A stretch of DNA of 64,000 nucleotides from contig CANPZY010000001.1 of the NCBI GenBank assembly GCA_947588945.1, positions 17,446-81,445 on the forward strand. Reading direction: 5' to 3'. A model generated the notes under the pieces. The model made no database searches, was not told the DNA's origin, and worked only from the letters and a program-made list of their open reading frames with translations. Source of the DNA: an uncultured Clostridia bacterium (lineage in GTDB: Bacteria; Bacillota; Clostridia; TANB77; CAG-508). The position numbers were made by a program, and so were the translations under genes. Positions 1-26,085 of this stretch are shown here, piece after piece (position 1 is the stretch's first letter; the number at the start of each line of letters is the position of its first letter).

Positions 1-72
1 GCGAATGGAGCGCTGAAATGAAATTTCAGCTAGCGACAGCAAGCCACAAAAAGCATTATATTTTTATTTTGC
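1..72 (+). repeat. GC-rich hairpin-embedded repeat, copy A (5' part cut off by window edge)
   Basis: Begins GCGAATGGAGCG, then a perfect hairpin CTGAAAT-gaa-ATTTCAG, then CTAGCGACAGCAAGCCAC and an AT-rich arm. Same order as the copies at 5184, 14931 and 25970. Confidence 0.7.
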
Positions 73-4490: not shown

Positions 4491-4554
4491 AGCTTACCTC
4501 CTTAATATTTACTTAAATATATGCGAGGTATGCTAAAATATGATTAGATTTTAA

Positions 4555-4592
4555 AAATAAAAAATACACCTTTATTTAATAAATAAGGTGCA
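4555..4592 (-). terminator. Terminator after veg
   Basis: CACCTTATTT / AAATAAAGGTG stem followed by a U-run on the minus strand. Confidence 0.5.
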
Positions 4593-4619
4593 TTTGAATG
4601 TATATTAAATATACATATT

Positions 4620-4922
4620 TTAGTCTAATGACGTTTTAACTTTCTTTTGAGTTTTAACCATTGGTGGAATAAGTGGGCTATAACTTTCTCCATCAAATAC
4701 GTCAACCTCAACAGTTCTCGTTAGTACATCTTTATATTGGTATGAAACATTTCTTTCGTTTTCTTCATACTTAACCACAAAAATATTAGGATAAGCTTTT
4801 TCTATTGTTGCTTCTTTTTCAAACGATCTACTTCTTCCTAAAGATCCTTTTACTATTATCTTTTGACCAATTTTTTCTTTAATATCTGTCTGTAAGTTAA
4901 TAATATCCTCTTGGTAAATCAT
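4620..4922 (-). CDS. veg: Veg protein
   Basis: 100 aa. GRSRSFEKEATIEKAYPNIFVV...VSYQYKDVLTRTVEV aligns to B. subtilis Veg. RBS AGGTGA is present. Confidence 0.85.
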   Translation of the reverse strand: MIYQEDIINLQTDIKEKIGQKIIVKGSLGRSRSFEKEATIEKAYPNIFVVKYEENERNVSYQYKDVLTRTVEVDVFDGESYSPLIPPMVKTQKKVKTSLD

Positions 4923-5070
4923 TTAATCACCTACTTTTCTTATGATGAATTTATGCTACCATTTTTGTCGAAAAAAGTCAAAAAAAATTATGTCTATTGA
5001 CTATTAATTTTACAGTATTTTCAATACTTTGATGGTATTGTTACAAATATGTTACAATTTGTTTTTTTGC

Positions 5071-5116
5071 AAAAAAATAAACATAATTCCTTATTTCAAA
5101 ATTATGTTTATTTTTA
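5071..5116. terminator. Bidirectional intrinsic terminator
   Basis: ATAAACATAAT / ATTATGTTTAT 11-bp stem with an A-run before and a T-run after. Confidence 0.55.
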
Positions 5117-5183
5117 CTGTAAACTTATTTGAACTATTAATTTGCAATAATATAAAAATATATATAATCTATAAACATATAAA

Positions 5184-5305
5184 ACAAATAAAAATACAAT
5201 AGTTTGCAGTTGTGCGCAGCGACCAAGCGTAAGCGCGAATGGAGCGATAAAACTTTTGTTTTATCTGCGACAGCAAACAACAAAAACTATTGTATTTTTA
5301 TTTGT
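5184..5305 (+). repeat. GC-rich hairpin-embedded repeat, copy B
   Basis: Perfect 22-nt inverted arms (5184-5205 and 5284-5305) enclose a 78-nt GC-rich core. The core contains AAGCGCGAATGGAGCG, the hairpin ATAAAAC-tttt-GTTTTAT and CTGCGACAGCAA. The element lies 13 nt beyond the spoIIQ-like stop. Confidence 0.85.
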
Positions 5306-5317
5306 ATTTTATTTTTT

Positions 5318-6172
5318 TTATTTTATATATATATCCGGATTAACATATTCTCCATCTTTTAGGATTTCAAAATGCAAATGACTTCCATCAAGAGTTTCAA
5401 ATACAGCTGAATTTCCAACTGTTCCAATTGATTGACCTTGTTGAACTTCATCCCCTTCTTTTACAAATTCTGTACTAAGCAAGCTTGAATATACAGTTTG
5501 AAATCCATTTTTATGATCTATTGTTATACTTAGTCCATATCTAGGATCTTCTTTTATATATTTTACAGTTCCTGAAGCTGATGCTTTTACAACTGTAGTT
5601 TTATCTGCTTTTATATCAATTCCTCTATGAGTAATCCATTCTTGAAGCGTATTAGAATAAGTTAAACTATCCATTGAATAACTTGTTATATTTTCTCCAT
5701 CTACTGGCTTTATAAATTGATCTTGAGCCTGATTTTCACCTGTAGCATTTTTATTTGATGTATCCTTTGCGTTTGGATTAAGTTCATCTTCATCATTATT
5801 TTCTTTATTTGTGTTACTGTTATTATTTGAATTATTTTCAGTTACTTGATTATTATTAGTATTTTCATTATCTTCATTTGATTCATTAGTAAAAACTTGA
5901 TTTTGTATCACATTTTCAGAATCACCAGTTGCATTGGTATTTACATTTGTATTATTTTTTATTTCTTCTCTAATTTCATTTACCGTTCTACTAAATTCTG
6001 AACTTGTTTGTTCTACTATTGTTACATTCCTATTTATTTTTGCTTCTCTTGTGGCCTTTTCTTCATTTGCTGATAAAACTATTGCTATTAATAGTAAAAA
6101 AATGGATATTAAAAATCCCGTAATACTAAGCCATTTTTTATTATTTTTTTCTTCATTTTTTCTTTCTCTCAT
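5318..6172 (-). CDS. spoIIQ: M23/LytM-domain sporulation protein, SpoIIQ-like
   Basis: N-terminal TM segment, an N/E-rich linker and a C-terminal M23 domain with HRGIDI and HLHFE metal-ligand motifs. It sits directly downstream of spoIID. I prefer the ATG at 6172, which has an AGGAGG RBS. Confidence 0.7.
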   Translation of the reverse strand: MRERKNEEKNNKKWLSITGFLISIFLLLIAIVLSANEEKATREAKINRNVTIVEQTSSEFSRTVNEIREEIKNNTNVNTNATGDSENVIQNQVFTNESNEDNENTNNNQVTENNSNNNSNTNKENNDEDELNPNAKDTSNKNATGENQAQDQFIKPVDGENITSYSMDSLTYSNTLQEWITHRGIDIKADKTTVVKASASGTVKYIKEDPRYGLSITIDHKNGFQTVYSSLLSTEFVKEGDEVQQGQSIGTVGNSAVFETLDGSHLHFEILKDGEYVNPDIYIK

Positions 6173-6312
6173 ATATATCCTCCTAAAAAATTTCTTAATT
6201 GAATTATTTCCATTTTTTAGGCTTATATACATTTATTTACAAATAAAATTGACATATATAATTAATACACAAAAAAGAATATATACACATATAATAACCA
6301 GAAAATCACTAC

Positions 6313-7312
6313 CTACATATCCACAATTTCTACACCTGTGTAAAAATGCTTAATAATATCTTCGTAGTTACTGCCATTCTTCGCCATACTATCTGCACCT
6401 GTTTGACTCATTCCTACTCCATGCCCATAACCAATAACACTAAATTTAATATTATCTCCATCAATTTGTACATTAAAATTAGCTGATCTTAGCCCTAACA
6501 TAGTTCTAACTTCCACACCTGATAAATTTAAGTTTCCTATTTTTATAGTTTTAACTCTCTGCCCCTCTGTATAATCTAAAATTTTTATGCAATCTTCTTG
6601 ATTATAATCTATATTAAAATCTTGGTGTTTTTCTAAAAGCTTTTCCTTCAATTCTTCTTTAGATAATATAACCTCAGAGCTGTATTGAGAATATGCATCT
6701 TCTCCAGCTGTTTCAACTGATTGTAAATATGGATAATTTGTTCCTCCCCAAACTTCTTTTGGACTTTCAGTAATTCCACCACTATTTGAATGGAAAAAAG
6801 CATCTATAACTTCCCCTTCATATACAATCATCTTTCCTTTCGTTTCATTCACAGCTTTTACAATTTTATTCCAGTTTTCTTCCCTTACTCCTTCATCCCA
6901 TCTTGCCATTCTATCTTCTTTTGAAATCCATGCTTGACAGCAATTTGAATCATCACAAATATCTGCATTTTCATGTTTCTTTCCATTTTTAATTGTATAT
7001 AATGTATATGTTCTTGCAACAACAGCCTGTGCTTTTAAAGCCTCTAATTCAAAGGTTGCTGGCATTTCACTTGAAACGACACCTAATAAATATTCATCTA
7101 ATCCGCATTTCTTCAACTCTATCTTCATTTTTATGTAATAATTTTATAGTTCCATGTTCCTTATAATTATATGGTTCAACTTTTTCTTCCACCACATTTG
7201 TAATATTTTCTGGCTCTTTCACAGCAGTACTATAAAAAGAATTTGCAAATATTGCCGGAATAATAAATATTAATATAATAAAAATAAAAAATAATAAAAA
7301 AAATTTTTTCAT
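6313..7312 (-). pseudogene. spoIID: Stage II sporulation protein D (SpoIID), split by an apparent +1 frameshift
   Basis: ORF 7094-7312 encodes the signal-anchor N-terminus. ORF 6313-7128 encodes the SpoIID domain (ARTYTL, HSNSGGITES, GHGVGMSQ). The two frames meet at an A5 run (plus strand T5, 7128-7132). Confidence 0.85.
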
Positions 7313-8013
7313 TATGCTTCTTTTAATTCCTTACTTAAATTTTCTAAAACTCTTTTTTCTATTCTTGAAACTTGTACTTGGCTAATTCCAATAATGTCAG
7401 CTACCTTTTTTTGAGTTTGACATTTATAATATCGTAAAAAAATTATCTTTTTTTCTCTTGGTTCTAAATTATTTATGCATTGCTTTAATGCTAGTTTATT
7501 AACTATTATTTCTTCGTTATTTTCCTTTGAAGCGAGTCTATCTATTAAAGTAATGTCATCATCATCTGACTTATCATATATTGACTTTATAGATTGTTTA
7601 CTGTCAAGTGCTATTGCTATTTCTTCTTTTTCAACCTTTAATTTTTTTGCTAAATCTTCAATGCTTATATCAGGATTTTGTTTTTGCTCTATGGCAATTT
7701 TGCTTGATAATTCTTGTATTTGCCTAGAAATTTTTATTGGTCCATTATCTCTTAAAAATCTTTTTATTTCTCCTATTATATATGTTACAGCAAAAGTTGA
7801 AAGCATCACATTATAAGAAAAATCAAATTTTTGAACTGCTTTTATAAAACCTATTGCCCCAATCTGATATATATCTTCAAATTCATAACCTCTATTTTCA
7901 AATCTTTTTGCTATATTTACAATTAATCCTTTATTTTCCAAGACAAGTTCATTAAGCACATTCTTGTTTCCATTCTGTGCTTCTAATATTTTTATCTTAA
8001 GATTTTCGTCCAC
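7312..8013 (-). CDS. sigF: Sporulation sigma factor SigF
   Basis: 233-aa sigma-70-family protein immediately after spoIIAA-spoIIAB. GTG start with an AGGAGAAG RBS. Region 4 reads VADIIGISQVQVSRIEKR. Confidence 0.9.
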   Translation of the reverse strand: MDENLKIKILEAQNGNKNVLNELVLENKGLIVNIAKRFENRGYEFEDIYQIGAIGFIKAVQKFDFSYNVMLSTFAVTYIIGEIKRFLRDNGPIKISRQIQELSSKIAIEQKQNPDISIEDLAKKLKVEKEEIAIALDSKQSIKSIYDKSDDDDITLIDRLASKENNEEIIVNKLALKQCINNLEPREKKIIFLRYYKCQTQKKVADIIGISQVQVSRIEKRVLENLSKELKEA

Positions 8014-8030
8014 TTATCTTCTCCTATTTT

Positions 8031-8534
8031 CTATGCTCCTAATGTATTTTTTATGTCTTCTTTTTGTTTTTCATCTGATAAATTATCTTCTTTTAAATCT
8101 TCTTTAGGAGTAATTTTCTTTTTCATAATAACCCTTGTGCCAAATCCTAAAGCTGATTCAACCTTTACTTCGTCCATAAAACTTTCCATTATTGTAAAGC
8201 CCATTCCTGACCTTTCTAAATCTGGCTTAGATGTATATAATGGTTTCATTGCCATCTCAACATTTTCAATTCCTTTACCGTTATCTATGATTTCAATTTG
8301 AACTGTATCTAAATAAATTCTTGCTTCAATTTTTACAGTGCCCTCTCCTTCTTCATAACCATGAATAATACTATTTGTTACAGCCTCTGAAATTGCCGTT
8401 TTTATATCTGATAATTCATCAATAGTAGGATCCAGCTGTGATACAAATGCTGCAACTGCTATTCTTGCAAATGCTTCATTACAAGTTTTACTTGAAAATT
8501 CTAATTTCATTTCATTATCATATAGCCTCTTCAT
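8031..8534 (-). CDS. spoIIAB: Anti-sigma F factor (serine kinase) SpoIIAB
   Basis: GHKL motifs [16 protein letters not shown] and GMGFTIM. Overlaps the end of spoIIAA. Confidence 0.9.
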
Positions 8535-8868
8535 TGTTTTCCTCCTTTGCTATTAAACCTTCATTATTAATTTTAATTATTCTTGATACTCCACTCATAT
8601 CAAATATTTTTTTAAGCCTTCTATTTACATTAATTAATTCAAATTCTCCTCCTAACATCTTTACTAATTTATATCTTCCAAGTACCATTCCTATTCCTGA
8701 ACTATCCATAAATGTTATATTTGTAAAATCAAAAATTACCTTTTTTGAATTATAAATTTCTATTTCATTATCTAATTTTCTTCTAATATTATCTGCTGTA
8801 TGTTGGTCAATTTCTTCTGTTATTATTAATGTAAGTATTTTATTTTCTTTGTCATACTTCGAAATCAT
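8518..8868 (-). CDS. spoIIAA: Anti-sigma F factor antagonist SpoIIAA (STAS)
   Basis: STAS domain with the phosphorylatable motif [19 protein letters not shown]. Confidence 0.9.
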
Positions 8869-8932
8869 CTTACTCCCTCCTTTGTTTAAAATTATTTTTT
8901 ATAATTTAAGATTTTATTTTTGCTCAAACTAT

Positions 8933-8967
8933 AAAAAAAGAAACTATAAATATTATAGTTTCTTTTT
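8933..8967. terminator. Bidirectional terminator-like hairpin upstream of spoIIAA
   Basis: GAAACTATAA-ata-TTATAGTTTC stem with an A7 run before and a T5 run after. Confidence 0.55.
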
Positions 8968-8990
8968 CCATTTATTTCCATAGTAAGTTT

Positions 8991-9016
8991 TGTCGATTTA
9001 TAAAAAGTTTTCGACA
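8991..9016. promoter_or_regulatory. Inverted pair of Spo0A-box-like heptamers
   Basis: TGTCGAT (plus strand, 8991-8997) and TGTCGAA (minus strand, 9010-9016) form the palindrome TTGTCGA-N12-TCGACAA upstream of the spoIIA operon. The 0A-box consensus is TGTCGAA. Confidence 0.35.
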
Positions 9017-9058
9017 AGAAATCTATTTTAAAGTTTTTTTATTCATATTACTATTAGT

Positions 9059-9445
9059 TTAAAATAAAATATCTATATTCTTAATATGATTAATATAAAA
9101 TTTATCTTTTTTATAAATTTCAATTATATCAAATCTTATACTTCTTCCTTCTAACTTGTTAAAATAAATAAAATATTTACTTGCCTTTAAAATATGTTTT
9201 TTCTTCTGTTTGTTTACCGCTTCTGATGGCAAACCACAATTTAAACTCATCCTTGTTTTTACTTCTATAAATACAATTTCCTTCTTGTCTTGTGCAATTA
9301 TATCAATTTCTCCTTGCCTACATCTAAAATTCCTACATAAAATTTTATATCCTTTTTCTCTTAAATATCTACATGCAAAATTTTCTCCTATCTTTCCTAA
9401 TTCTTGATTTTCACTCATATTCCACTTCTTCTTATCTTTTTTCAA
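9059..9445 (-). CDS. yraN: YraN-family (UPF0102) endonuclease-like protein
   Basis: 128 aa with GEIDIIA...IVFIEVKTR, typical of the YraN family. Confidence 0.85.
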   Translation of the reverse strand: MKKDKKKWNMSENQELGKIGENFACRYLREKGYKILCRNFRCRQGEIDIIAQDKKEIVFIEVKTRMSLNCGLPSEAVNKQKKKHILKASKYFIYFNKLEGRSIRFDIIEIYKKDKFYINHIKNIDILF

Positions 9446-9469
9446 ATTAATATTTTATTAAATAATTTT

Positions 9470-10312
9470 TTATTCTTTTACCACATATTTATCTCCTGGC
9501 AAACTTTTTATAAATCCATCAACTTCAAGCATAAATAATATCTCATTTATTTCTTGAATCGTTCTATTAGCTCTTTTTGAGATTTCATTAACTGATACTG
9601 GAATTGTTCCAATATTTTCATATACTTCTTTATATTTTCCATCAATATTTATTTTTTCATCACACTCATCATAATTTAAACTATTTAATATATCCATTGG
9701 CGAGATTACAAGACTTGCTCCTTCTTGTATTAATTTATTTGTTCCATAACTATTTTTTTCACTTATATTCCCTGGAATACAAAATACCTCTTTATTTTGT
9801 CTAAATCCATATCTAGCTGTAATTGTACTTCCACTCCTATATTTAGCTTCTATCACTAAAATTGCATCAGCTAGTCCACTTATTATTCTATTTCTTCTAG
9901 GAAACTTACTCATATCAATTTCTTCATCTGGTTGAAATTCAGAAATTACAGCTCCACCTGAGTTTACAATTTTTTCTACTAAGATTTTATTTTCTGGTGG
10001 ATAAATATTTTTAAATCCAGAAGCTAAGACCGCAATAGTTTTTCCCTCTTTTTCAATTGAATTAATATGTGCAATTGTATCTATTCCTCTAGCTAATCCA
10101 CTTATTATGCATATACCTTTTTTTGATAATTCTTCCGAAAATCTTTTTGCTTGTTCTTTTCCATATTCACTGCAATCTCTTGAACCAACAATTGCAACTA
10201 TTGGTTTATCAAATAATTCTAAATTTCCTTCTACATATAATTTTTTTGGATAGTTTTTTATCTTTAATAACTTTTCTGGATAATTTTTCTGCGTTGATTT
10301 TATTATTTTCAT
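9470..10312 (-). CDS. dprA: DNA-processing protein DprA
   Basis: 280 aa. Rossmann-like DprA core VAIVGSRDCSEYG...SGLARGIDTIAH and a C-terminal winged-helix region. Confidence 0.9.
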   Translation of the reverse strand: MKIIKSTQKNYPEKLLKIKNYPKKLYVEGNLELFDKPIVAIVGSRDCSEYGKEQAKRFSEELSKKGICIISGLARGIDTIAHINSIEKEGKTIAVLASGFKNIYPPENKILVEKIVNSGGAVISEFQPDEEIDMSKFPRRNRIISGLADAILVIEAKYRSGSTITARYGFRQNKEVFCIPGNISEKNSYGTNKLIQEGASLVISPMDILNSLNYDECDEKINIDGKYKEVYENIGTIPVSVNEISKRANRTIQEINEILFMLEVDGFIKSLPGDKYVVKE

Positions 10313-10334
10313 AGTTATTACTTTTTTCTCCTTT

Positions 10335-11991
10335 TTAATTTTTAAAAAAGTTTTTGTCTAAACTTCTATATTGTATTGCTTCTGAAATATGTCTTTTTTC
10401 AATATTTTCGCTACCTTCTAAATCTGCTATTGTTCTAGCTACTTTTAAAATTTTCAAATAAGCTCTAGAAGTTAATCCTAGATTTATAAAAGCTTTTTTT
10501 AATAATTCTTTGCTTTCTTCATCTATTTTGCAATATTTTTCACACTGCTTATGATTTAATTCGGAGTTTGAAAATATATTTTCATTTTCATATCTTTTTT
10601 GTTGAATTAATCTTGCCTTTTCAACTCTTTGCTTTATTTCACTAGAACTCTCCTCTTTACTTTTATTTGATAATTTATCATAGTTTACTCTTTCAACTTC
10701 AATTTGAATATCTATTCTATCTAAAAGAGGCCCACTAAGTTTTCCTAAATATTTCTTAATTAAAATTGGCGTACACGTACATTGTTTATAATTTGAACCA
10801 TAATAACCACAAGGACATGGATTCATAGATGCTACCAACATAAAATTACAAGGATAAGTTAATACCTGATTTAATCTTGCTATTGTTATCTTTTTATCTT
10901 CTAGTGGCTCTCTTAATACCTCTAAAGTATCTTTGTCAAACTCTGCTATTTCATCTAAAAATAATACTCCATTGTGTGCTAAACTTATCTCTCCCGGCTT
11001 TGGCACTCTTCCACCACCTATCAATGCTACTTTAGTTATTGTGTGATGTGGATTTCTAAATGGTCTTGATACAATTATCTTCTCATCATTTTTTAATGTT
11101 CCTGCTATACTATGAATCTTTGTTGTTTCAAGAGATTCTTCAAAAGTTAAATTTGGTAAAATTGTTGTTAATCTTTGTGCAAGCATTGTTTTTCCGAGAT
11201 CCAGGACTTCCTATAAGTAGAATATTATGCCCACCTGCTGCTGCAATTTCTAGTGCTCTTTTAACATTTTCTTGACCTTTTACTTCATTAAAATCTATAT
11301 TATATTTATTTATGTTTTTGTTTATTTCTTCCCATGTTGTTTTTATTTCTTTTAATTTAATATTTCCATTCAAATATTCTATTATTTCTTTTAATGTTTT
11401 TGCTCCTAGTATTTCTATCCCTTCAACAATTCCTACCTCATCTAAATTTTCATAAGGTATAATTATTTTTTTCATACCTAATCTTTTTGCTTCTATGCAT
11501 ATTGGCAAAATTCCATTAATTTTATTTATTTTTCCATCAAGAGAAAGTTCACCAATAAAAGCTGTTTTTCTGTTTTTTAAATAATTTCTTATTTCTATTT
11601 CGCCAAGATAATCTTCGTTATCAACTGAAGTCTCATTTATATTTTTCTCACCTTCATTACTAAAAATATCAATCTTATTTTTTGAATAATTTTCTTTTTT
11701 ACTTTTTATTACTCCTATACAATATAAAACTCCAATAGCTATTGGTAAATCTAAATAAGATCCTTCTTTTCTTATGTCTGCTGGAGCTAAGTTTACTAAT
11801 ACCTTTCTACTAAATAATTCATATCCTGAATTTTTAATTGCAGTTTTTACTCTTTCTTTTGATTCTTTTATACTTATATCTGGCAAACCTACAATATCCC
11901 ATTCCGGAATACCTGCAGATACATCAACTTGCACATCAATAATATATCCCTCTAATCCTTTTAGAGACATACTTTTAACTATCGAAAGCAA
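10335..11991 (-). pseudogene. comM: ComM/YifB Mg-chelatase-like AAA+ ATPase, split by a 1-nt frameshift inside the Walker A motif
   Basis: Two 283-aa ORFs overlap at 11140-11186. The coding strand reads GGA TCT CGG AAA AAC AAT. Removing the C (plus-strand g at 11196) restores GSPGSGKTMLAQRL. Confidence 0.85.
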
Positions 11992-12202
11992 TTTTTTTCT
12001 CCTTTCATTTATTAAATTTATTTGGAATTTTGTAATTAGATTTAATTACAATAGAATTAATTTTATATCCATATTTTACCATAACATTTTAAAAAATGCA
12101 ATACTTTTTTATTATTTACATGTATATTTTTCATAATTGCATTTAATTTTTCACTTAGACTTTATTTTATAATTGTCGCTTTTTATTTATACTTTCATTA
12201 CA

Positions 12203-12247
12203 AAAAAATTAGAGAGAAATTTAATTTAGATATTTCTCTCTAATTTT
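12203..12247 (-). terminator. Terminator after trmB
   Basis: TTAGAGAGAAAT / ATTTCTCTCTAA stem flanked by A/T runs. Confidence 0.55.
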
Positions 12248-12955
12248 TTAAGTATTTATTTTAGCAATCAATGCTTTTATTTTTATTCCTTCTGCTTTAA
12301 ACATTTTTTCATGTTCTGTTTCTATATTTTCTTCACCATTCCAGAAATTTGTTTCATTAGATAAATCATAAGTTATCTTTTCAATTTTATATCCAGTATC
12401 ATTAAAGTATTTCTGAGATTGTTCAAATAAATCATCATCATCTGTTTTAAAAAATATCTCACCTTTTAAGAATTTTTTGTATTGTTCTAGTTGTCTTTCA
12501 TGAGTCAATCTTTTTTTATGATGTTTGCCTCTTGGCCAAGGATTACAGAAATTAATATATATTCTTTCTATTTCGTCATCTTCTCCAAAGACGTCTGTAA
12601 TTCTTGCTATATCATATCTTGTAAGTTTTAAATTTTTTACTACTTTTTGTTTTTCTATTTCGTTTTCTATAACTTCTGCTATAGTTGATTCTCTAATTCC
12701 ATATTCTGCTTCTACATTTCTTTTTGCCATTCCAAGCATTGCATCAACTAAATCTATTGCAATGTAATTTATATTTTGATTTTGTTTTGAAAGCTTTGCT
12801 ATAAAGTTTCCTTTCCCACAACCAAGTTCTAAATACAATTTTTGCTCTTTTTCAAATACAGTTTTCCACTTATTTTTATAATCTTGTGGATTATCTATGT
12901 AAAATGGGCTTGTTTCTAATTCTTCTCTCGCCCAAGGTTTAAATTTCATTCTCAT
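12248..12955 (-). CDS. trmB: tRNA (guanine46-N7)-methyltransferase TrmB
   Basis: 235 aa with LELGCGKGNF and NFCNPWP...HHKKRL, typical of TrmB. Confidence 0.88.
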   Translation of the reverse strand: MRMKFKPWAREELETSPFYIDNPQDYKNKWKTVFEKEQKLYLELGCGKGNFIAKLSKQNQNINYIAIDLVDAMLGMAKRNVEAEYGIRESTIAEVIENEIEKQKVVKNLKLTRYDIARITDVFGEDDEIERIYINFCNPWPRGKHHKKRLTHERQLEQYKKFLKGEIFFKTDDDDLFEQSQKYFNDTGYKIEKITYDLSNETNFWNGEENIETEHEKMFKAEGIKIKALIAKINT

Positions 12956-13055
12956 TTTTTTTTTCCTCGTATAATATGTTTATAAGTTTCATTTAATATA
13001 AATTTTTTTAATATTATTAATTTCTATTTAAAGAAATTTTTTATAACTTATATAA

Positions 13056-13736
13056 TTATTTTAAATCAACTCCAGATAATTCTTTCCAATTTCCTTTCAT
13101 ATCTGGTACATCGCTAAATGTAATTTTTTCTTTTGTAATTGGATGCTCTATTGTAAGCTTATATGACCACAAGCATAAACCTTTATCTATATTCTTTCCA
13201 TGATATTTTGAATCTCCAACTATGCTATGTCCTCTGCTTGAAAGTTGCACCCTTATTTGATGATGTCTTCCTGTATGTAAATCAATTTCAATAATTGAAA
13301 TATTTTTTTCTTTATCATATTTTAAAACTCTATAATCAAGTTCTGCTCTTTTAGCATTCTTTTTTGTTTCTTTCACCACATAACTTGTATTATTCTTTTC
13401 GTCCTTCCATAAATAGTCTACTAATGTATCTTCATCTTTTTCCATTTTTCCATTTACTATTGCTATATAACTTTTCTTAAATGTTTTATTTCTAACTTGT
13501 TCACTTAATCTTGATGCTGCTTTTGAAGTTTTTGCAAACACCATCACACCACCTACTGGTCTATCTAATCTATGAACTAATCCTAAATAAACATTTCCCG
13601 GCTTTTGATATTTTTCTTTTAAATAAGCCTTTATTATTGTAAGCATATCTTCATCTTCCGTTTTATCAGCTTGTGAAGGTATACCTGCTTCTTTCCTAAC
13701 TACAATTATGTGATTATCTTCATATATTACTTTCAT
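13056..13736 (-). CDS. RluA-family pseudouridine synthase
   Basis: Catalytic motif HRLDRPVGGV and HTGRHHQIRVQL. Confidence 0.88.
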   Translation of the reverse strand: MKVIYEDNHIIVVRKEAGIPSQADKTEDEDMLTIIKAYLKEKYQKPGNVYLGLVHRLDRPVGGVMVFAKTSKAASRLSEQVRNKTFKKSYIAIVNGKMEKDEDTLVDYLWKDEKNNTSYVVKETKKNAKRAELDYRVLKYDKEKNISIIEIDLHTGRHHQIRVQLSSRGHSIVGDSKYHGKNIDKGLCLWSYKLTIEHPITKEKITFSDVPDMKGNWKELSGVDLK

Positions 13737-13781
13737 TAAAACTACATCCTTTATTATAAAACTATAGTAATTTTAGTGCAA

Positions 13782-14660
13782 TTAACTTTCCCATCTTCCA
13801 TAAATTCCACAAGGTAACACTAATTCTGAATTAGTCATTGGTAATCCTACTTCTCCATTCGAGAATTTTCCTTTTACATTTTTAGGCATACAAACTCTTA
13901 GCATATTTTCTAAAACTCTACTTGATATTCCTGTTGTGTATGAATTAATAAGGAAAAATAAAGGCTTATCTGATAATACATTTGTGCATAATTTAATTAG
14001 TTCAAATATATTTTCTTCAAACTTCCATACTTCTCCATTTGCACCTCTTCCATAAGATGGAGGATCCATTATTATTGCATCATATTTGTTATTTCTTCTA
14101 ATTTCTCTATTTACAAATTTTACAACATCATCAATTAAAAATCTAACCTTTTTATCTCTTAAATTAGATGAAGTTACATTTTCTTTTGCCCATTCTACCA
14201 TTCCCTTTGAACTATCCACATGACAAACAGATGCACCTGCATAAAGACAACTTACAGTTGCACCTCCAGTATATGCAAAAAGATTTAAAACCTTTATTTC
14301 TCTATTTGCACCTTTTATTTTATTAATCATCCAGTCCCAGTTTACAGCTTGCTCAGGAAATAAACCAGTGTGTTTAAATCCCATTGGCTTAATATTAAAC
14401 TCTAAATCTTTATATCTAACTTGCCAGTTTTTAGGAAGCTTATTATTGTATTTCCATGCTCCACCACCAGTCGCACTTCTTTCATATCTAGCATCAGCCT
14501 TTTTCCATAATTCAGGAAATGTTTTTTCTTTCCAAATTATTTGTGGATCAGGTCTTATTAAAATAATATCTTTCCATCTTTCTAATTTTTCGCCATTTGC
14601 CATATCTAGTATTTCGTAATCATTCCAATTATTTGCTATATCCATTTCTTTACCTTTCAC
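13782..14660 (-). CDS. Class I SAM-dependent methyltransferase (RlmI/RlmK-like catalytic domain)
   Basis: 292 aa with VLNLFAYTGG, IIMDPPSYGRG and a GLFPEQ motif. Confidence 0.75.
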   Translation of the reverse strand: MKGKEMDIANNWNDYEILDMANGEKLERWKDIILIRPDPQIIWKEKTFPELWKKADARYERSATGGGAWKYNNKLPKNWQVRYKDLEFNIKPMGFKHTGLFPEQAVNWDWMINKIKGANREIKVLNLFAYTGGATVSCLYAGASVCHVDSSKGMVEWAKENVTSSNLRDKKVRFLIDDVVKFVNREIRRNNKYDAIIMDPPSYGRGANGEVWKFEENIFELIKLCTNVLSDKPLFFLINSYTTGISSRVLENMLRVCMPKNVKGKFSNGEVGLPMTNSELVLPCGIYGRWES

Positions 14661-14717
14661 TTCATTTTTACAACATTATTTAAAGCTTGTCTATAAAATT
14701 TATCTTTTTTTATAAAA

Positions 14718-14822
14718 TTATATTAATTTAAGTAGCATTACAAAATTATAAATCAATACTCCCAAAAAAGCTTGTACAATTATTGCCAATACGACAAAAA
14801 ATATAAAAAACTTCTTTCCCAT
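14718..14822 (-). CDS. Possible 34-aa hydrophobic small protein
   Basis: Below the ORF-track cutoff. AGGAGAGAG lies 4 nt before the ATG. Product MGKKFFIFFVVLAIIVQAFLGVLIYNFVMLLKLI is a single TM helix. Confidence 0.35.
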   Translation of the reverse strand: MGKKFFIFFVVLAIIVQAFLGVLIYNFVMLLKLI

Positions 14823-14930
14823 AACTCTCTCCTATTTTAATAATATACTATTTAAAATATATTCGAGAATTACCAATTTATTCCACAAATCGTATTACAA
14901 CTTTTTATATTTTTTTACAAAATTTATAAT

Positions 14931-15057
14931 TACAATAAAAATAGTTATAATTCTGCAGTGGCGCGTAGCGCTCAAGCAAAGCGCGAATGGAGCGAAAGTG
15001 ATGAAATCACTTTCTAGCGACAACAAGCCACAAAAAATTATAAGTATTTTTATTGTA
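14931..15057 (+). repeat. GC-rich hairpin-embedded repeat, copy C
   Basis: 22-nt inverted arms (14931-14952 and 15036-15057, one mismatch) enclose an 83-nt core. The core contains AAGCGCGAATGGAGCG, the hairpin AAAGTGAT-gaa-ATCACTTT and CTAGCGACAACAAGCCAC. The element ends 9 nt from the uvrC stop. Confidence 0.85.
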
Positions 15058-15065
15058 TTAATAAA

Positions 15066-16919
15066 TCATAAGCTTTCCTTTATTTTTTTAGCCAGTTCTT
15101 CATTTATTCCTTTTACTTCCGCAATCTCACTAACATCTGCATTTTTAATATTTTCTACACTATTAAATTTCTTTAAAAGTGCTAGTTTTTTTACAGTTCC
15201 TATTCCACTAATTTCATCTAGTTTAGATTTAGTCATAGATTTATCTCTTAAGAATTTGTGATATCCAATTGCGTTATCATGAACTGCATTTTGAAAATTA
15301 GTTATCAAATTAAATAAATCTTCTGAAATATTAATTACTTTTCTATTTTCATCAATTAATGCTCTTGTTTCATGCTTATCATTTTTTACCATACCAAAAA
15401 CACTAATATCTAAGCTCTTGTTTATTTTATTTTCAACATTTTTTATTGCTTGTTTTATAGCTCTTATCTGTGTTATTCCACCATCAGCTAAAATCAAATC
15501 TGGTAATTTTCCAAATCCTTTTGAATCTCCAATTTTTTCTATATCTACATCTTTTAATTTTCCTTTTTCTTCATCAGTTAACTCTATTGAATGATAAAGT
15601 CTCCTAGTTACAACTTCTTCCATACATTTTGGATCATCTTGTCCATATACAGTTTTTATTTTAAATCTTCTTGATAAATTTTTCTTAATCACTCCATCAA
15701 TCATAACACACATTCCTGCTACCATATATTCACCAGAAATGTTTGATATATCAAAACTTTCTATTTTTCTTGGAAGATTTTCTAATCCTAATACTTCTTT
15801 TAATTCTAAAACTAAATTTTTATTTGATTTTTCTTTATTATCCAATGTTATTTTGGCATTATTTTCTGCCATTTCTACTAATTTTATTTTCTTTCCTTTT
15901 TGTGGAACTTTAATTTCAACTTTTCTTTCACTTTCATTAGTAAGCCAGATTTCTAAAAGTTTTCTTTCTTCAAAATCTTCTTTTACCATTATTTTGTTAG
16001 GAAAAAATTTTCTTCCTGTATAATATTGCTTTATAAAATTAGAAATTATTTCTTTATCATCTTCATCATTTAATCCTTTTAAGAAAAAATGATCTCTGCC
16101 AATCATTTTGCTATTTCTAATGTAAAAAATTTCTACACATATTTCATATTCATTTCTAGCTATTCCAATTACATCAATGTCATTATCTGAAATATTTGAG
16201 ACTTTCTGTCTTTGTGAAATTCTTTGTGTTGCTAAAAGTTCATCTCTTATTTGTGCTGCTTTTTCAAATTCTTGTTTTTCTGATGCTTCTAGCATTTCAT
16301 TTTTTAATTCTTTTTGTACTTCATCAATATTTCCATCTAATATTGATATAATCTGATTTATCTGCTTTCTATAATCATCTTTTGAAATATATCCCATACA
16401 TGGTGCCATACATTTTTTTATATGATAATTCAAGCATGCCCTATCCTTATATTTAAAAGTTCTGCATTGTCTGATTTTAAATTTTGATTTTATAAAATCC
16501 ACCATTTCTTTTGCAGCACCTGCATTTGCATAAGGTCCAAAATATCTTGCTCCATCATTTAAAATTTTCCTAGTTATATAAATATCTGGAAAATCAGCTT
16601 TTACATTTATTTTTATGTATGGATATGTTTTATCATCTTTTAAAAGCACGTTAAATTTAGGCATATTTTTCTTTATTAGATTACATTCTAATATAAGTGC
16701 CTCTGCCTCATTTTCACAAACAATATACTCAAAATGATCTATTAATGCTACCATATTTAGTATTCTTTGAGTTTTATTTGTTTTTCTAAAATATGAAGTT
16801 ACTCTCCTTTTTAAATTAATTGCCTTTCCAACATAAATAATCTTATCTGATTTATCATGCATAATATATACACCAGGTTTTTGAGGCAATTTTTTTAATT
16901 CTTCTTCTATATTAAACAT
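15066..16919 (-). CDS. uvrC: Excinuclease ABC subunit C (UvrC)
   Basis: GIY-YIG motif PGVYIMHDKSDKIIYVGKA and a C-terminal HhH pair. I prefer the ATG at 16919 (RBS GGAGAAAG) over the ORF-track start at 16967. Confidence 0.92.
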   Translation of the reverse strand: MFNIEEELKKLPQKPGVYIMHDKSDKIIYVGKAINLKRRVTSYFRKTNKTQRILNMVALIDHFEYIVCENEAEALILECNLIKKNMPKFNVLLKDDKTYPYIKINVKADFPDIYITRKILNDGARYFGPYANAGAAKEMVDFIKSKFKIRQCRTFKYKDRACLNYHIKKCMAPCMGYISKDDYRKQINQIISILDGNIDEVQKELKNEMLEASEKQEFEKAAQIRDELLATQRISQRQKVSNISDNDIDVIGIARNEYEICVEIFYIRNSKMIGRDHFFLKGLNDEDDKEIISNFIKQYYTGRKFFPNKIMVKEDFEERKLLEIWLTNESERKVEIKVPQKGKKIKLVEMAENNAKITLDNKEKSNKNLVLELKEVLGLENLPRKIESFDISNISGEYMVAGMCVMIDGVIKKNLSRRFKIKTVYGQDDPKCMEEVVTRRLYHSIELTDEEKGKLKDVDIEKIGDSKGFGKLPDLILADGGITQIRAIKQAIKNVENKINKSLDISVFGMVKNDKHETRALIDENRKVINISEDLFNLITNFQNAVHDNAIGYHKFLRDKSMTKSKLDEISGIGTVKKLALLKKFNSVENIKNADVSEIAEVKGINEELAKKIKESL

Positions 16920-17145: not shown

Positions 17146-17832
17146 GTGAAAGAAAGGAAAATTTCTATGAATGAAAATAAATTATTTGATTTAGGACTTA
17201 TCTGTGGCAGATTTTCACATGCACATTTAGGACATCTACAACTATTTCAATCTTGTATGGCACTTTGTAAGCGTACACTTATATTGGTATCTTCTGCGCA
17301 AGAATCTAAAACATTAAGAAATCCTTTTTCTATTGATACTAGAATAAACGTGATAAAACAATGTCTTCGAGATATTTCAGAAGATAATCTTATTATAAAA
17401 GGGCTAGATGACCTCACAAATGAATATGATTTTAATGTAGATTGGGGCGGATATGTTAAGAAAAATGTAGAAAAAATAACAGGAAAATTTGCAGACCTTA
17501 TGGTTTATGGAAATGAAGAAGCTCGCAATAAATGGTTTAAATCAGAAGATATAGAAAAAACCGCAGAGCTAATTTTACCACGAATTTTATCAGCAACTCT
17601 TGTTAGAGGAATGCTTATTATAGATAATGAAAAGGCTTGGAAAGAATCTACTCCTAATAACATTCACCATTTATATAAAGATTTACAAAATGAAATTTTA
17701 GATGTTCCTATTTATCAAAAAATATATAATGAGATAAATAGAACACCTAAAACTATTGACGATTTTATGAATGTTTATAAAATTTATGAAACAGAAGATA
17801 AGAATAAAAAGCTCGAATCAATAAAAAGTTAA
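17146..17832 (+). CDS. Cytidylyltransferase-family protein (NMN adenylyltransferase-like)
   Basis: N-terminal nucleotidyltransferase motif GLICGRFSHAHLGHL (HxGH type). The start may be the ATG at 17167. Confidence 0.65.
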   Translation: MKERKISMNENKLFDLGLICGRFSHAHLGHLQLFQSCMALCKRTLILVSSAQESKTLRNPFSIDTRINVIKQCLRDISEDNLIIKGLDDLTNEYDFNVDWGGYVKKNVEKITGKFADLMVYGNEEARNKWFKSEDIEKTAELILPRILSATLVRGMLIIDNEKAWKESTPNNIHHLYKDLQNEILDVPIYQKIYNEINRTPKTIDDFMNVYKIYETEDKNKKLESIKS

Positions 17833-25969: not shown

Positions 25970-26085
25970 AAAAAATAATTTAACTCTTCTTGCCTTCGTT
26001 GTCGCTAGAAATTTGCAAGCAAATTTCGCTCCATTCGCGCTTCGCTTGAGCGTTACGAAGTCTGCGTAGAGTTAAATTATTTTTT
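25970..26085 (-). repeat. GC-rich hairpin-embedded repeat, copy D (inverted orientation)
   Basis: 18-nt perfect inverted arms (25970-25987 and 26068-26085) around an 80-nt core. The reverse complement of the core carries AAGCGCGAATGGAGCG, the hairpin AAATTTGC-tt-GCAAATTT and CTAGCGACAACGAAG. The element starts 7 nt after the engB stop. Confidence 0.85.

Follow-up and report, generated by a model that had tools for sequence, protein, structure and literature searches.

A branched, G+C-rich hairpin repeat of rabbit-gut Clostridia, gained, flipped and decayed between sister strains and probably mobile as DNA

Introduction

What kind of entity is a G+C-rich, strongly structured sequence that recurs between the genes of an A+T-rich genome: a functional RNA, a DNA site or a selfish repeat? 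The question is raised by a 64,000-nt stretch of DNA from an uncultured Clostridia bacterium (hereinafter the window), in which such an element occupies positions 14931..15057 on the plus strand (127 bp, covariance-model score 131.5 bits). It begins 9–12 nt past the stop codon of uvrC, which lies on the minus strand, so that the core strand of the element is antisense to uvrC. Each copy of the element, 116–130 bp in length, is one long imperfect hairpin in which three helices, P1, P2 and an extended P3, are stacked serially, with a G+C-rich side branch of 21–30 nt on the 5′ strand only. A sequence-only reading of the window had inferred selection on RNA or DNA structure and had held that the observed pattern excludes a decaying repeat. 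The structured family with its covarying helices stands, with a DNA-level alternative fitting better and selection on RNA not being demonstrated; the exclusion of a repeat or mobile element is contradicted by insertion polymorphism, flips and decayed copies. As one and the same site can be filled, empty, inverted or degraded among sister strains, we consider it probable that it is a lineage-restricted, non-autonomous mobile hairpin DNA of the kind represented by miniature inverted-repeat transposable elements (MITEs) and REPINs, and not a fixed regulatory RNA.

Gain, inversion and decay of copies between strains

The window and L126 carry the element at the site 3′ of uvrC, which is empty in L119, L117, L120 and L121 (such handles denote contigs related to the window). 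The UvrC of L119, a Lapin-028 strain, is 99% identical to that of the window, with about 93–96% identity at the DNA level, and those of the sister species in L117, L120 and L121 are 83–86% identical. Given that the site is empty in these three sister species too, the empty state is ancestral. In L119 it reads TGATTTATTA-TAGATATAT-AATTTGTAAAAAAA, as against TGATTTATTAA-[127-bp element]-ATTATAAATTTTGTAAAAAAA at the filled site of the window. There is no P1-like hairpin at the empty site; thus, P1 arrived with the element and belongs to it.

At the same locus, L126 (a third strain, UvrC 99% identical) holds a copy of the same subfamily with its interior in the opposite orientation. At the M23 peptidase locus the window, L128 and L129 share P1 arms and flanks with L119 but enclose an interior that is exactly inverted relative to it, and the same holds at the engB locus for the window and L125 relative to L122, L123 and L124. 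An interior of about 80 bp lying between perfect inverted repeats of 19–24 bp is accordingly found inverted at all three of the comparable loci. The orientation agrees among independent assemblies of each lineage (the window, L125, L128 and L129 versus L119, L122, L123 and L124), which argues against assembly errors as the source of the flips.

Decay takes several forms. The engB-locus copy of L123 has lost its 3′ arm by a 52-nt deletion. At the bofA–glmS site, L121:731-814 has lost the core's 5′ half and retains P1 with the 3′ half alone, and L117 has a full copy with a mutated version of the 16-mer described below; only these two contigs are taken as orthologous there, the bases that L022 shares with L121 being the outer P1 extension of that subfamily. 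A further decayed copy, L128:69-135, lacks the branch and P3, with P1 and P2 fragments remaining. Moreover, contigs of independent assemblies end inside the core (the window at its position 1, and the ends of L119, L124, L125, L126 and L129), as is expected of a dispersed repeat; in practical terms, the element is a nuisance that fragments short-read assemblies of this gut lineage. Together, these comparisons show that the element inserts at new sites, persists across species, decays by internal deletion and flips its interior.

Anatomy of the element and its copies

In agreement with the sequence-only reading, the window contains four copies, one of them truncated. In addition to the uvrC copy, these are:

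5184..5305, plus strand: complete element copy, 12 nt past the stop of the M23 peptidase gene (minus strand) and antisense to that gene
25970..26085, minus strand: complete element copy between the convergent engB (plus strand) and CBS-domain (minus strand) genes, 4–6 nt past the engB stop
1..72, plus strand: 3′ part of an element copy, cut off by the window start

The last of these is whole in the sister-strain contigs L128/L129:9640-9765, where it lies between divergent mscS and alpha-amylase genes, so that the proposed placement after stop codons applies to the three complete window copies and not to this one. A 16-mer in the core, AAGCGCGAATGGAGCG, has three exact matches in the window (5231, 14979 and, on the minus strand, 26027) versus 0.03 expected from shuffles. 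It is identical in the three complete window copies, as had been noted, but is not invariant outside the species, L117 having GAATGAAGCA and L119 having AAACGAAGTGCGAATGG in its place. The density in the window is about one copy per 16 kb; by extrapolation, a genome would hold roughly 100. The spacing is uneven: all four copies fall within 26 kb of the window start, and 26100-64000 is devoid of them. The window genes form an ordinary chromosomal set, including the sporulation sigma-F operon, the dcw cluster, uvrC, serS and glmS.

We derived the anatomy from 23 full copies, realigned with the covariance model to 24, drawn from the window and from related rabbit-gut metagenome-assembled genomes (MAGs). 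In the uvrC copy, its parts on the plus strand are as follows:

14931..14952: P1 5′ arm (TACAATAAAAATAGTTATAATT), pairing with 15036-15057 with one G·G mismatch
14953..14957: 5′ internal loop CTGCA (the 'GCAG' loop), facing AAAA at 15032-15035
14958..14966: P2 5′ strand, comprising GTGGC, the GC mismatch and GT, and pairing with 15023-15031 (AC, AA, GCCAC; alignment pairs 38-46 with 110-118)
14967..14987: conserved lateral branch on the 5′ strand, comprising AGCGCTCAA, the hairpin Pa GCAAAGC (14976-14982) and GCGAA
14988..14994: 5′ strand of the P3 extension, TGGAGCG, pairing with CTAGCGACA (15014-15022) through tandem G·A/A·G
14995..15013: P3 apical hairpin, comprising AAAGTGAT, the loop GAA and ATCACTTT
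15014..15035: 3′ strand, comprising CTAGCGACA (P3 extension), ACAAGCCAC (P2 3′ strand) and the AAAA loop
15036..15057: P1 3′ arm (AATTATAAGTATTTTTATTGTA)

Across copies, P1 is an A+T-rich helix of 19–24 bp with an A-tract/T-tract at its outer end; its sequence differs from copy to copy while remaining about 98% complementary. A small purine-rich internal loop, with G[C/A]A facing [A/G]A, separates it from P2, which consists of 5 bp, a conserved GC/AA mismatch (swapped for Watson-Crick pairs in two copies) and a 2-bp G-Y:R-C step. The inner sequence of P1 is linked to the type of P2, which defines subfamilies that recur at unrelated loci. The extended P3 stacks directly on P2, with UG-GA-GCG facing CU(A)GC-GA-CA and including the tandem G·A; the alignment pairs 73/109, 74/108, 77/105 and 78/104 of this extension are invariant. 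It is capped by a variable apical hairpin, of which about 7–10 types occur among the copies, every one paired. The alignment thus bears out the helices delineated earlier from the window alone, namely an A+T-rich, copy-specific and almost perfectly paired P1, the P2 pairs GTGGC/GCCAC, GTTGT/ACAAC and CTTCGT/ACGAAG, a P3 that varies in sequence yet always pairs perfectly, and CT(A)GCGACA(A/G)C as the closing motif.

The branch reads A-R-C-G-N-N-C-A-A, followed by the hairpin Pa and G-C-G-A-A. Pa is GCGAAGC in most copies, the others having GCGTAGC, GCGTAAGC, GCGCAAGC or GCAC-G(A/T)AA-GTGC. Hence, it nearly always matches the GCGNAGC/GCGNNAGC "mini-hairpin DNA" motif, which lies on one strand in all copies. 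Such mini-hairpins are exceptionally stable, bind the single-stranded DNA-binding protein (SSB) poorly and are found, as GCGNAGC motifs, at primase-dependent single-strand origins (PMC13037366).

Distribution

We scanned a genome collection with the pattern GCGCGAATGGAGCG-N(12-36)-GCGACA and considered 102 loci among the matches listed. Twenty of these are unmistakable copies, all in DNA of about 25–29% G+C, from three 'uncultured Clostridia' rabbit-gut MAGs (Lapin-028__bin79, Lapin-033__bin63 and Lapin-030__bin100), with at least 15 loci in one MAG. The remaining loci among the matches listed, 81 of them with at least 45% G+C, were set aside as chance matches in G+C-rich genomes. Among the matches listed, true copies are confined to rabbit-gut Clostridia MAGs of about 26% G+C. 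The core pattern gave only chance matches, again in G+C-rich DNA, in the JGI metagenomes and IMG/VR; blastn with the core found no match in plasmids and phages, and a full-text literature search for a 12-mer returned unrelated papers only. The window UvrC and that of Lapin-028__bin79 share 99% identity, and the two DNAs match at 87–96% over 22 kb, indicating that the window comes from the same species complex. The core is conserved in at least four species. The element family is previously undescribed and restricted to one lineage.

Genomic context and transcription

All copies but one, among those for which both neighbors are known, adjoin at least one gene 3′ end, usually 4–60 nt from the stop; the distance from the copies to the downstream gene start is 69–432 nt. 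The gene contexts are codirectional in 14–16 cases, convergent in 7–8 and divergent in one, the last being that of window copy 1 between the mscS and amylase genes in L128/L129. In this small sample orientation does not track replication, GC skew being negative over the whole window with copies on both strands.

On either strand, the outer part of P1 pairs an A-tract with a T-tract. A stable hairpin bracketed in this way would terminate transcription bidirectionally, in which case surviving copies would lie mainly just past stop codons and hardly ever in front of genes. Thus, the element probably acts as a bidirectional terminator at gene 3′ ends; a consensus terminator scan, which requires a short G+C-rich stem and is not suited to stems of this type, does not flag it. 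Promoter-like sites show no excess (68 versus 78 in shuffles), and -10-like hexamers do occur in the P1 5′ arm. As a separate observation, classical G+C-rich intrinsic terminators are scarce in window 4500-16000, with one found versus 1.8 expected from shuffles; the genome may terminate transcription via A+T-rich hairpins or by other means.

Pairing, folding and the case for a noncoding RNA

The three complete copies fold far better than their shuffles, with z-scores of -6.0 to -7.6 as RNA and -4.9 to -7.6 as DNA; both strands fold well as DNA, and the hairpin folding energy is -36 to -51 kcal/mol. In the 24-copy alignment 93.9% of the cells are paired, versus 72.7 ± 1.0% in shuffles and 43–57% with the partners slid. 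The covariation expected from the sequence-only reading is evident, both sides having changed in 31 of the 41 pairs and 189 cells being changed on both sides as against 58 ± 6.6 in shuffles. It is almost purely of Watson-Crick type, with no excess of G:U over A·C. The Y:R pair (14966:15023) is C:G or T:A in all 25 copies showing both sides, and both states occur within each of four different P1/P2 subfamilies. In the G(T/C)AG tetranucleotide, T occurs in 17 and C in 8 of the 25 copies, this base being paired with R. Pa has switched from GC…GC to AC…GT between orthologous copies.

The character of these pairs bears on the level at which complementarity is maintained. RNA under structural selection usually has many G:U pairs and no A·C. 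In P1 we count 502 Watson-Crick cells, 6 G:U and 3 A·C, and P2 is without any G:U; such rare G:U, with A·C equally rare, points to complementarity kept at the DNA level rather than by RNA structural selection, as a DNA palindrome or a single-strand-DNA substrate would produce. Strand-specific signals are confined to the unpaired parts (the G…A loops and the tandem G·A) and to the higher stability of the sense strand. Both motifs, the loops and the tandem pair, are stable in either nucleic acid.

The strongest competitor of the mobile hairpin DNA is a structured noncoding RNA carried on a repeat, with a core that would be selected as RNA and serve as a stabilizer or processing site of 3′ UTRs, as a small RNA, as an RNA bound by protein or as a new ribozyme that cleaves itself. 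The three-way junction, in which some 35 unpaired or non-canonical positions are strongly conserved between helices that covary, and the GNRA or GNA loops and tandem G·A confined to one strand are what such an RNA would display. So are the greater stability of the sense strand and the placement of most copies for co-transcription with the upstream gene, and the absence from Rfam is explicable by the uncultured lineage. Nevertheless, strains differ in the direction of the core strand at one and the same locus, with the result that either strand is carried by the flanking mRNA, and most codirectional contexts put the antisense of the conserved strand into the gene transcript. The near lack of G:U in the helices, where it is no commoner than A·C, the gain, loss and decay of copies at individual loci and promoter-like sites that do not exceed shuffles also count against an RNA. 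In line with the sequence-only reading, Rfam 15, which includes known ribozymes, HEARO/omega RNA and RAGATH motifs, gives no match at the gathering threshold in the window or in L117, L119 and L122; even at E ≤ 10 the best hit in Rfam is a snoRNA at E = 0.14 (22 bits versus a threshold of 100), which is a chance match, and no known ribozyme or RNA family scores credibly. We therefore regard a noncoding RNA as unlikely, while granting it a real share of the probability.

Specific RNA folds were also compared by eye. The hammerhead (CUGANGA/GAAA) and twister cores were rejected, there being no CUGANGA and no Rfam score, and so was a kink-turn reading of the G·A pairs, which have no 3-nt bulge beside them.

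More generally, functional RNA is usually diagnosed from strong covariation, conserved loops and G+C-rich islands in A+T-rich genomes, and a selfish DNA hairpin repeat can produce all three. Filled and empty, and flipped, orthologous sites in sister strains offer a quick test that separates the two.

Class tests and evidence against mobility

Several observations weigh against a mobile hairpin DNA of the MITE/REPIN kind. First, no transposase, RAYT or recombinase is linked to the element in the 64-kb window and about 100 kb of annotated related contigs; the window has no transposase gene, in line with the sequence-only reading, and no integrase or recombinase gene, and no autonomous parent sharing the ends of the element was found in the window, the annotated related contigs or the covariance-model matches. 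No RAYT gene was found in the loci retrieved from the genome-collection scan, which was a scan aimed at element copies. Second, target-site duplication is not above chance, the mean longest flanking direct repeat being 3.81 nt versus 3.73 nt in mismatched-flank controls, a test that is blind to a 2-bp TA duplication in DNA this A+T-rich. Third, the exact insertion boundaries at the uvrC site are not fixable because of the diverged A+T-rich flanks, and terminal sequences differ between copies, unlike classical MITE terminal inverted repeats. Fourth, the conserved strand is antisense rather than sense by 12:2 in the codirectional contexts of the first sample, a lean that a purely neutral element does not predict; with flipped orthologues counted it falls to 12:4, a weak bias. 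Finally, folding favors the sense over the antisense strand in 21 of the 23 copies, and GNRA-like loops and tandem G·A are typical RNA motifs too.

As in MITEs, the element is short (<300 bp), non-coding and multi-copy, with terminal inverted repeats and insertion polymorphism; a target-site duplication of fixed length did not emerge above chance. Strict membership of the MITE class is accordingly unsupported, neither such a duplication nor a linked transposase having been found. The sequence-only reading had itself listed unfixed orientation, target-site duplication, a linked transposase and a known Rfam family as evidence that would speak against it. Orientation is indeed unfixed (three flips) and insertion is polymorphic, whereas no target-site duplication, linked transposase or Rfam match was found.

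One transposase gene was seen elsewhere: in L127 (UvrC 77% identical) a truncated IS200-type Y1_Tnp ORF lies at 14650-14868, within 14484-15149, flanked by 28-nt palindromes (AACCCAAAAGGGACGTTCCTCTTTGGGT) unrelated to the element and with no element copy nearby. We rejected it as a mobilizer given its truncation, its unrelated ends and the absence of a nearby copy. Integron attC sites were likewise rejected by inspection, as they had been earlier, since the defining boxes are absent (no GTTRRRY/RYYYAAC at the stem base) and the window has no integrase; moreover, the copies lie about 10 kb apart amid housekeeping genes and not in arrays of short cassettes.

Relationship to known systems

The closest comparisons are the MITE-type repeats, such as Correia/NEMIS of Neisseria, ERIC/IRU of enterobacteria, and RUP and BOX of Streptococcus pneumoniae, which are of the same size (about 100–150 bp) and present in tens to hundreds of intergenic copies. 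Like the element, they fold as a whole into a hairpin by means of long terminal inverted repeats, are often co-transcribed at gene 3′ ends, show presence/absence between strains and often have a transposase that is unknown or elsewhere in the genome. The element differs in that its arms vary, the internal asymmetric G+C-rich branch being the most conserved part, and in that no TA or other duplication was detected; there is no sequence similarity, and exact interior flips are documented for the element.

REP elements and REPINs, mobilized by RAYTs of the IS200/IS605-type Y1 HUH kind, share with it the conservation of a hairpin with compensatory changes. REPs are extragenic, high-copy sequences that for the most part follow coding regions and have codirectional or convergent genes on either side (PMC3733652), a placement that matches that of the element. 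RAYTs recognize REPs as folded single-stranded DNA, and a comparable recognition may apply here. In E. coli, REP cleavage requires an AA/GC mismatch in the stem (PMC3733652), which is comparable with the GC/AA mismatch of P2, and in both cases a G(T/C)AG tetranucleotide adjoins the stem. However, a REP is a simple imperfect palindrome of 20–40 bp with an invariant GTAG (or CGTC) end tag, whereas the element is a 120-bp three-way junction in which T and C alternate at this position and the base is paired.

Further counterparts are the 'mobile/repeat sequence candidates' (MRSC), 250 of which were found in the screens of G+C-rich intergenic regions of A+T-rich bacterial genomes by the Breaker laboratory and judged to be selfish elements, not noncoding RNAs (PMC11109978). 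Like the element, MRSC are G+C-rich structured intergenic motifs in A+T-rich genomes, with dozens of copies per genome, a long stem that covaries strongly and an inconsistent orientation to genes (PMC11109978). The element is absent from that study and from Rfam 15, and its core is branched as opposed to the single long stem of MRSC-65-2 (PMC11109978). With 250 comparable MRSC showing strong covariation, the kind is familiar although the family is new. The GC clusters of yeast mitochondria and the repetitive hairpin-forming elements of sponge mitochondria are also reported as short G+C-rich mobile hairpins in A+T-rich spacers, with families and subfamilies and no encoded transposase (PMC4478555, PMC2800124); they differ in being organellar and shorter (30–60 bp), with no sequence relationship.

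Hairpins that flip and flop, such as the ends of adeno-associated virus (AAV) and chloroplast spacer inversions, resemble the element only in geometry and mutational behavior. The inverted terminal repeats of parvoviruses and AAV have an outer perfect stem around an asymmetric interior with two small hairpins and occur in two inverted configurations, flip and flop. These repeats are replication termini, whereas the copies of the element are chromosomal and interspersed. The inversion of hairpin loops by template switching between the stem arms is a known type of spontaneous mutation, seen for instance in chloroplast spacers.

Proposed mechanism and further alternatives

For the mobile hairpin DNA that we favor, the unit recognized in mobilization would be the folded single strand, most likely single-stranded DNA, and the enzyme acting on it would be encoded away from the copies. 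Such recognition would require only that the helices pair, and the sequence would be kept in the branch, in the tandem G·A and in the GC/AA mismatch. The most economical account would be that arm-to-arm template switching or recombination both keeps P1 near-perfectly Watson-Crick and flips the interior, in which case selection at the RNA level is not needed to explain perfect arms. Variable arms around an invariant branched core, the mini-hairpin motif and frequent exact flips make the family a tractable model for the recognition of hairpin repeats and the upkeep of their pairing.

We also considered a bolder extension, in which the three-way-junction core, with its mini-hairpin branch, tandem G·A and Y:R pair, is the recognition or catalytic module of an undescribed system. 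This could be a new class of single-strand-DNA mobile hairpins, served by an enzyme, of the HUH type or another, that needs no particular terminal sequence, or a set of about 100 flip-able 3′-end modules that alter the flanking mRNA, for example as a self-cleaving or protein-binding RNA in the 'sense' state only. We think this unlikely; were the mobilizing enzyme to recognize a three-way DNA junction rather than terminal repeats, the finding would be of wider interest.

The exact inversion of the ~80-bp interior between perfect arms at all three comparable loci, together with the strongly asymmetric and conserved core, invites the alternative of dispersed programmed mini-invertons, with the P1 arms as recombination sites, the core as a directional signal or recombinase-binding module and flips that toggle a 3′-end function. 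As in invertons, a segment between inverted repeats is seen in both orientations (at three loci). However, the arms are not conserved among copies, and a site-specific invertase could not recognize sequences that differ from copy to copy; each lineage has one orientation over independent samples, with no visibly fast switching, and no recombinase gene lies near any copy in the window and the annotated related contigs. The spontaneous template switching mentioned above inverts hairpin loops by itself. Programmed inversion appears quite improbable.

Very improbable, in our estimate, is a host-selected DNA site whose folded strand or cruciform is bound by a host protein, be it for priming or single-strand initiation, for nucleoid organization or topology as proposed for REP elements and bacterial interspersed mosaic elements, or for DNA uptake. 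The occurrence of GCGNAGC mini-hairpins at primase-dependent single-strand origins and their poor binding of SSB are in its favor (PMC13037366). So are the strand-symmetric helices, the conservation of the core in at least four species and the competence genes comM and dprA encoded in the genome. Presence/absence polymorphism and decay argue against a need at any given site; the irregular spacing, which crowds all four window copies into 26 kb and leaves the following 38 kb empty, also counts against this alternative, and we know of no precedent for sequence-specific DNA uptake in Firmicutes. A likeness to single-strand origins (CS-6 TAGCG) was dropped, the copies being chromosomal and dispersed and without the defining boxes.

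The last alternative, a shorter G+C-rich element inserted into the loops of pre-existing A+T-rich terminator hairpins with P1 as host sequence, would account for a P1 that differs from copy to copy and has A and T tracts at its borders in the manner of a bidirectional terminator, but deserves next to no credence, as it is contradicted by the hairpin-free empty uvrC site of L119 and the three sister species, by the linkage of P1 inner sequence to P2 type in subfamilies at unrelated loci and by the retention of P1 in decayed copies.

Other features of the region

Two strain-specific insertions near these loci are distinct from the element. A 200-nt insertion at L119:12128-12329, between a small ORF and a methyltransferase gene, is absent from the window (equivalent ~14666-14668); it holds a hairpin (AAACCATT…AATGGTTT), has no Rfam match and is not an element copy. 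A 1.9-kb insertion at L119:7194-9094 (window equivalent ~17825-17831) carries a 292-aa ORF without a Pfam match; beside it, 7212-7274 forms a terminator-like hairpin rich in A+T. The comM-like gene (ChlI/Mg_chelatase) is present as two overlapping ORFs in both strains (10335-11186 and 11140-11991 on the minus strand of the window; 15067-15906 and 15872-16723 in L119), which could represent a frameshift, a pseudogene or a genuine two-part gene. The small ORF, at window 14718-14822 on the minus strand between uvrC and the methyltransferase gene, encodes a hydrophobic protein of 34 aa (MGKKFFIFFVVLAIIVQAFLGVLIYNFVMLLKLI) and is kept in all related species examined.

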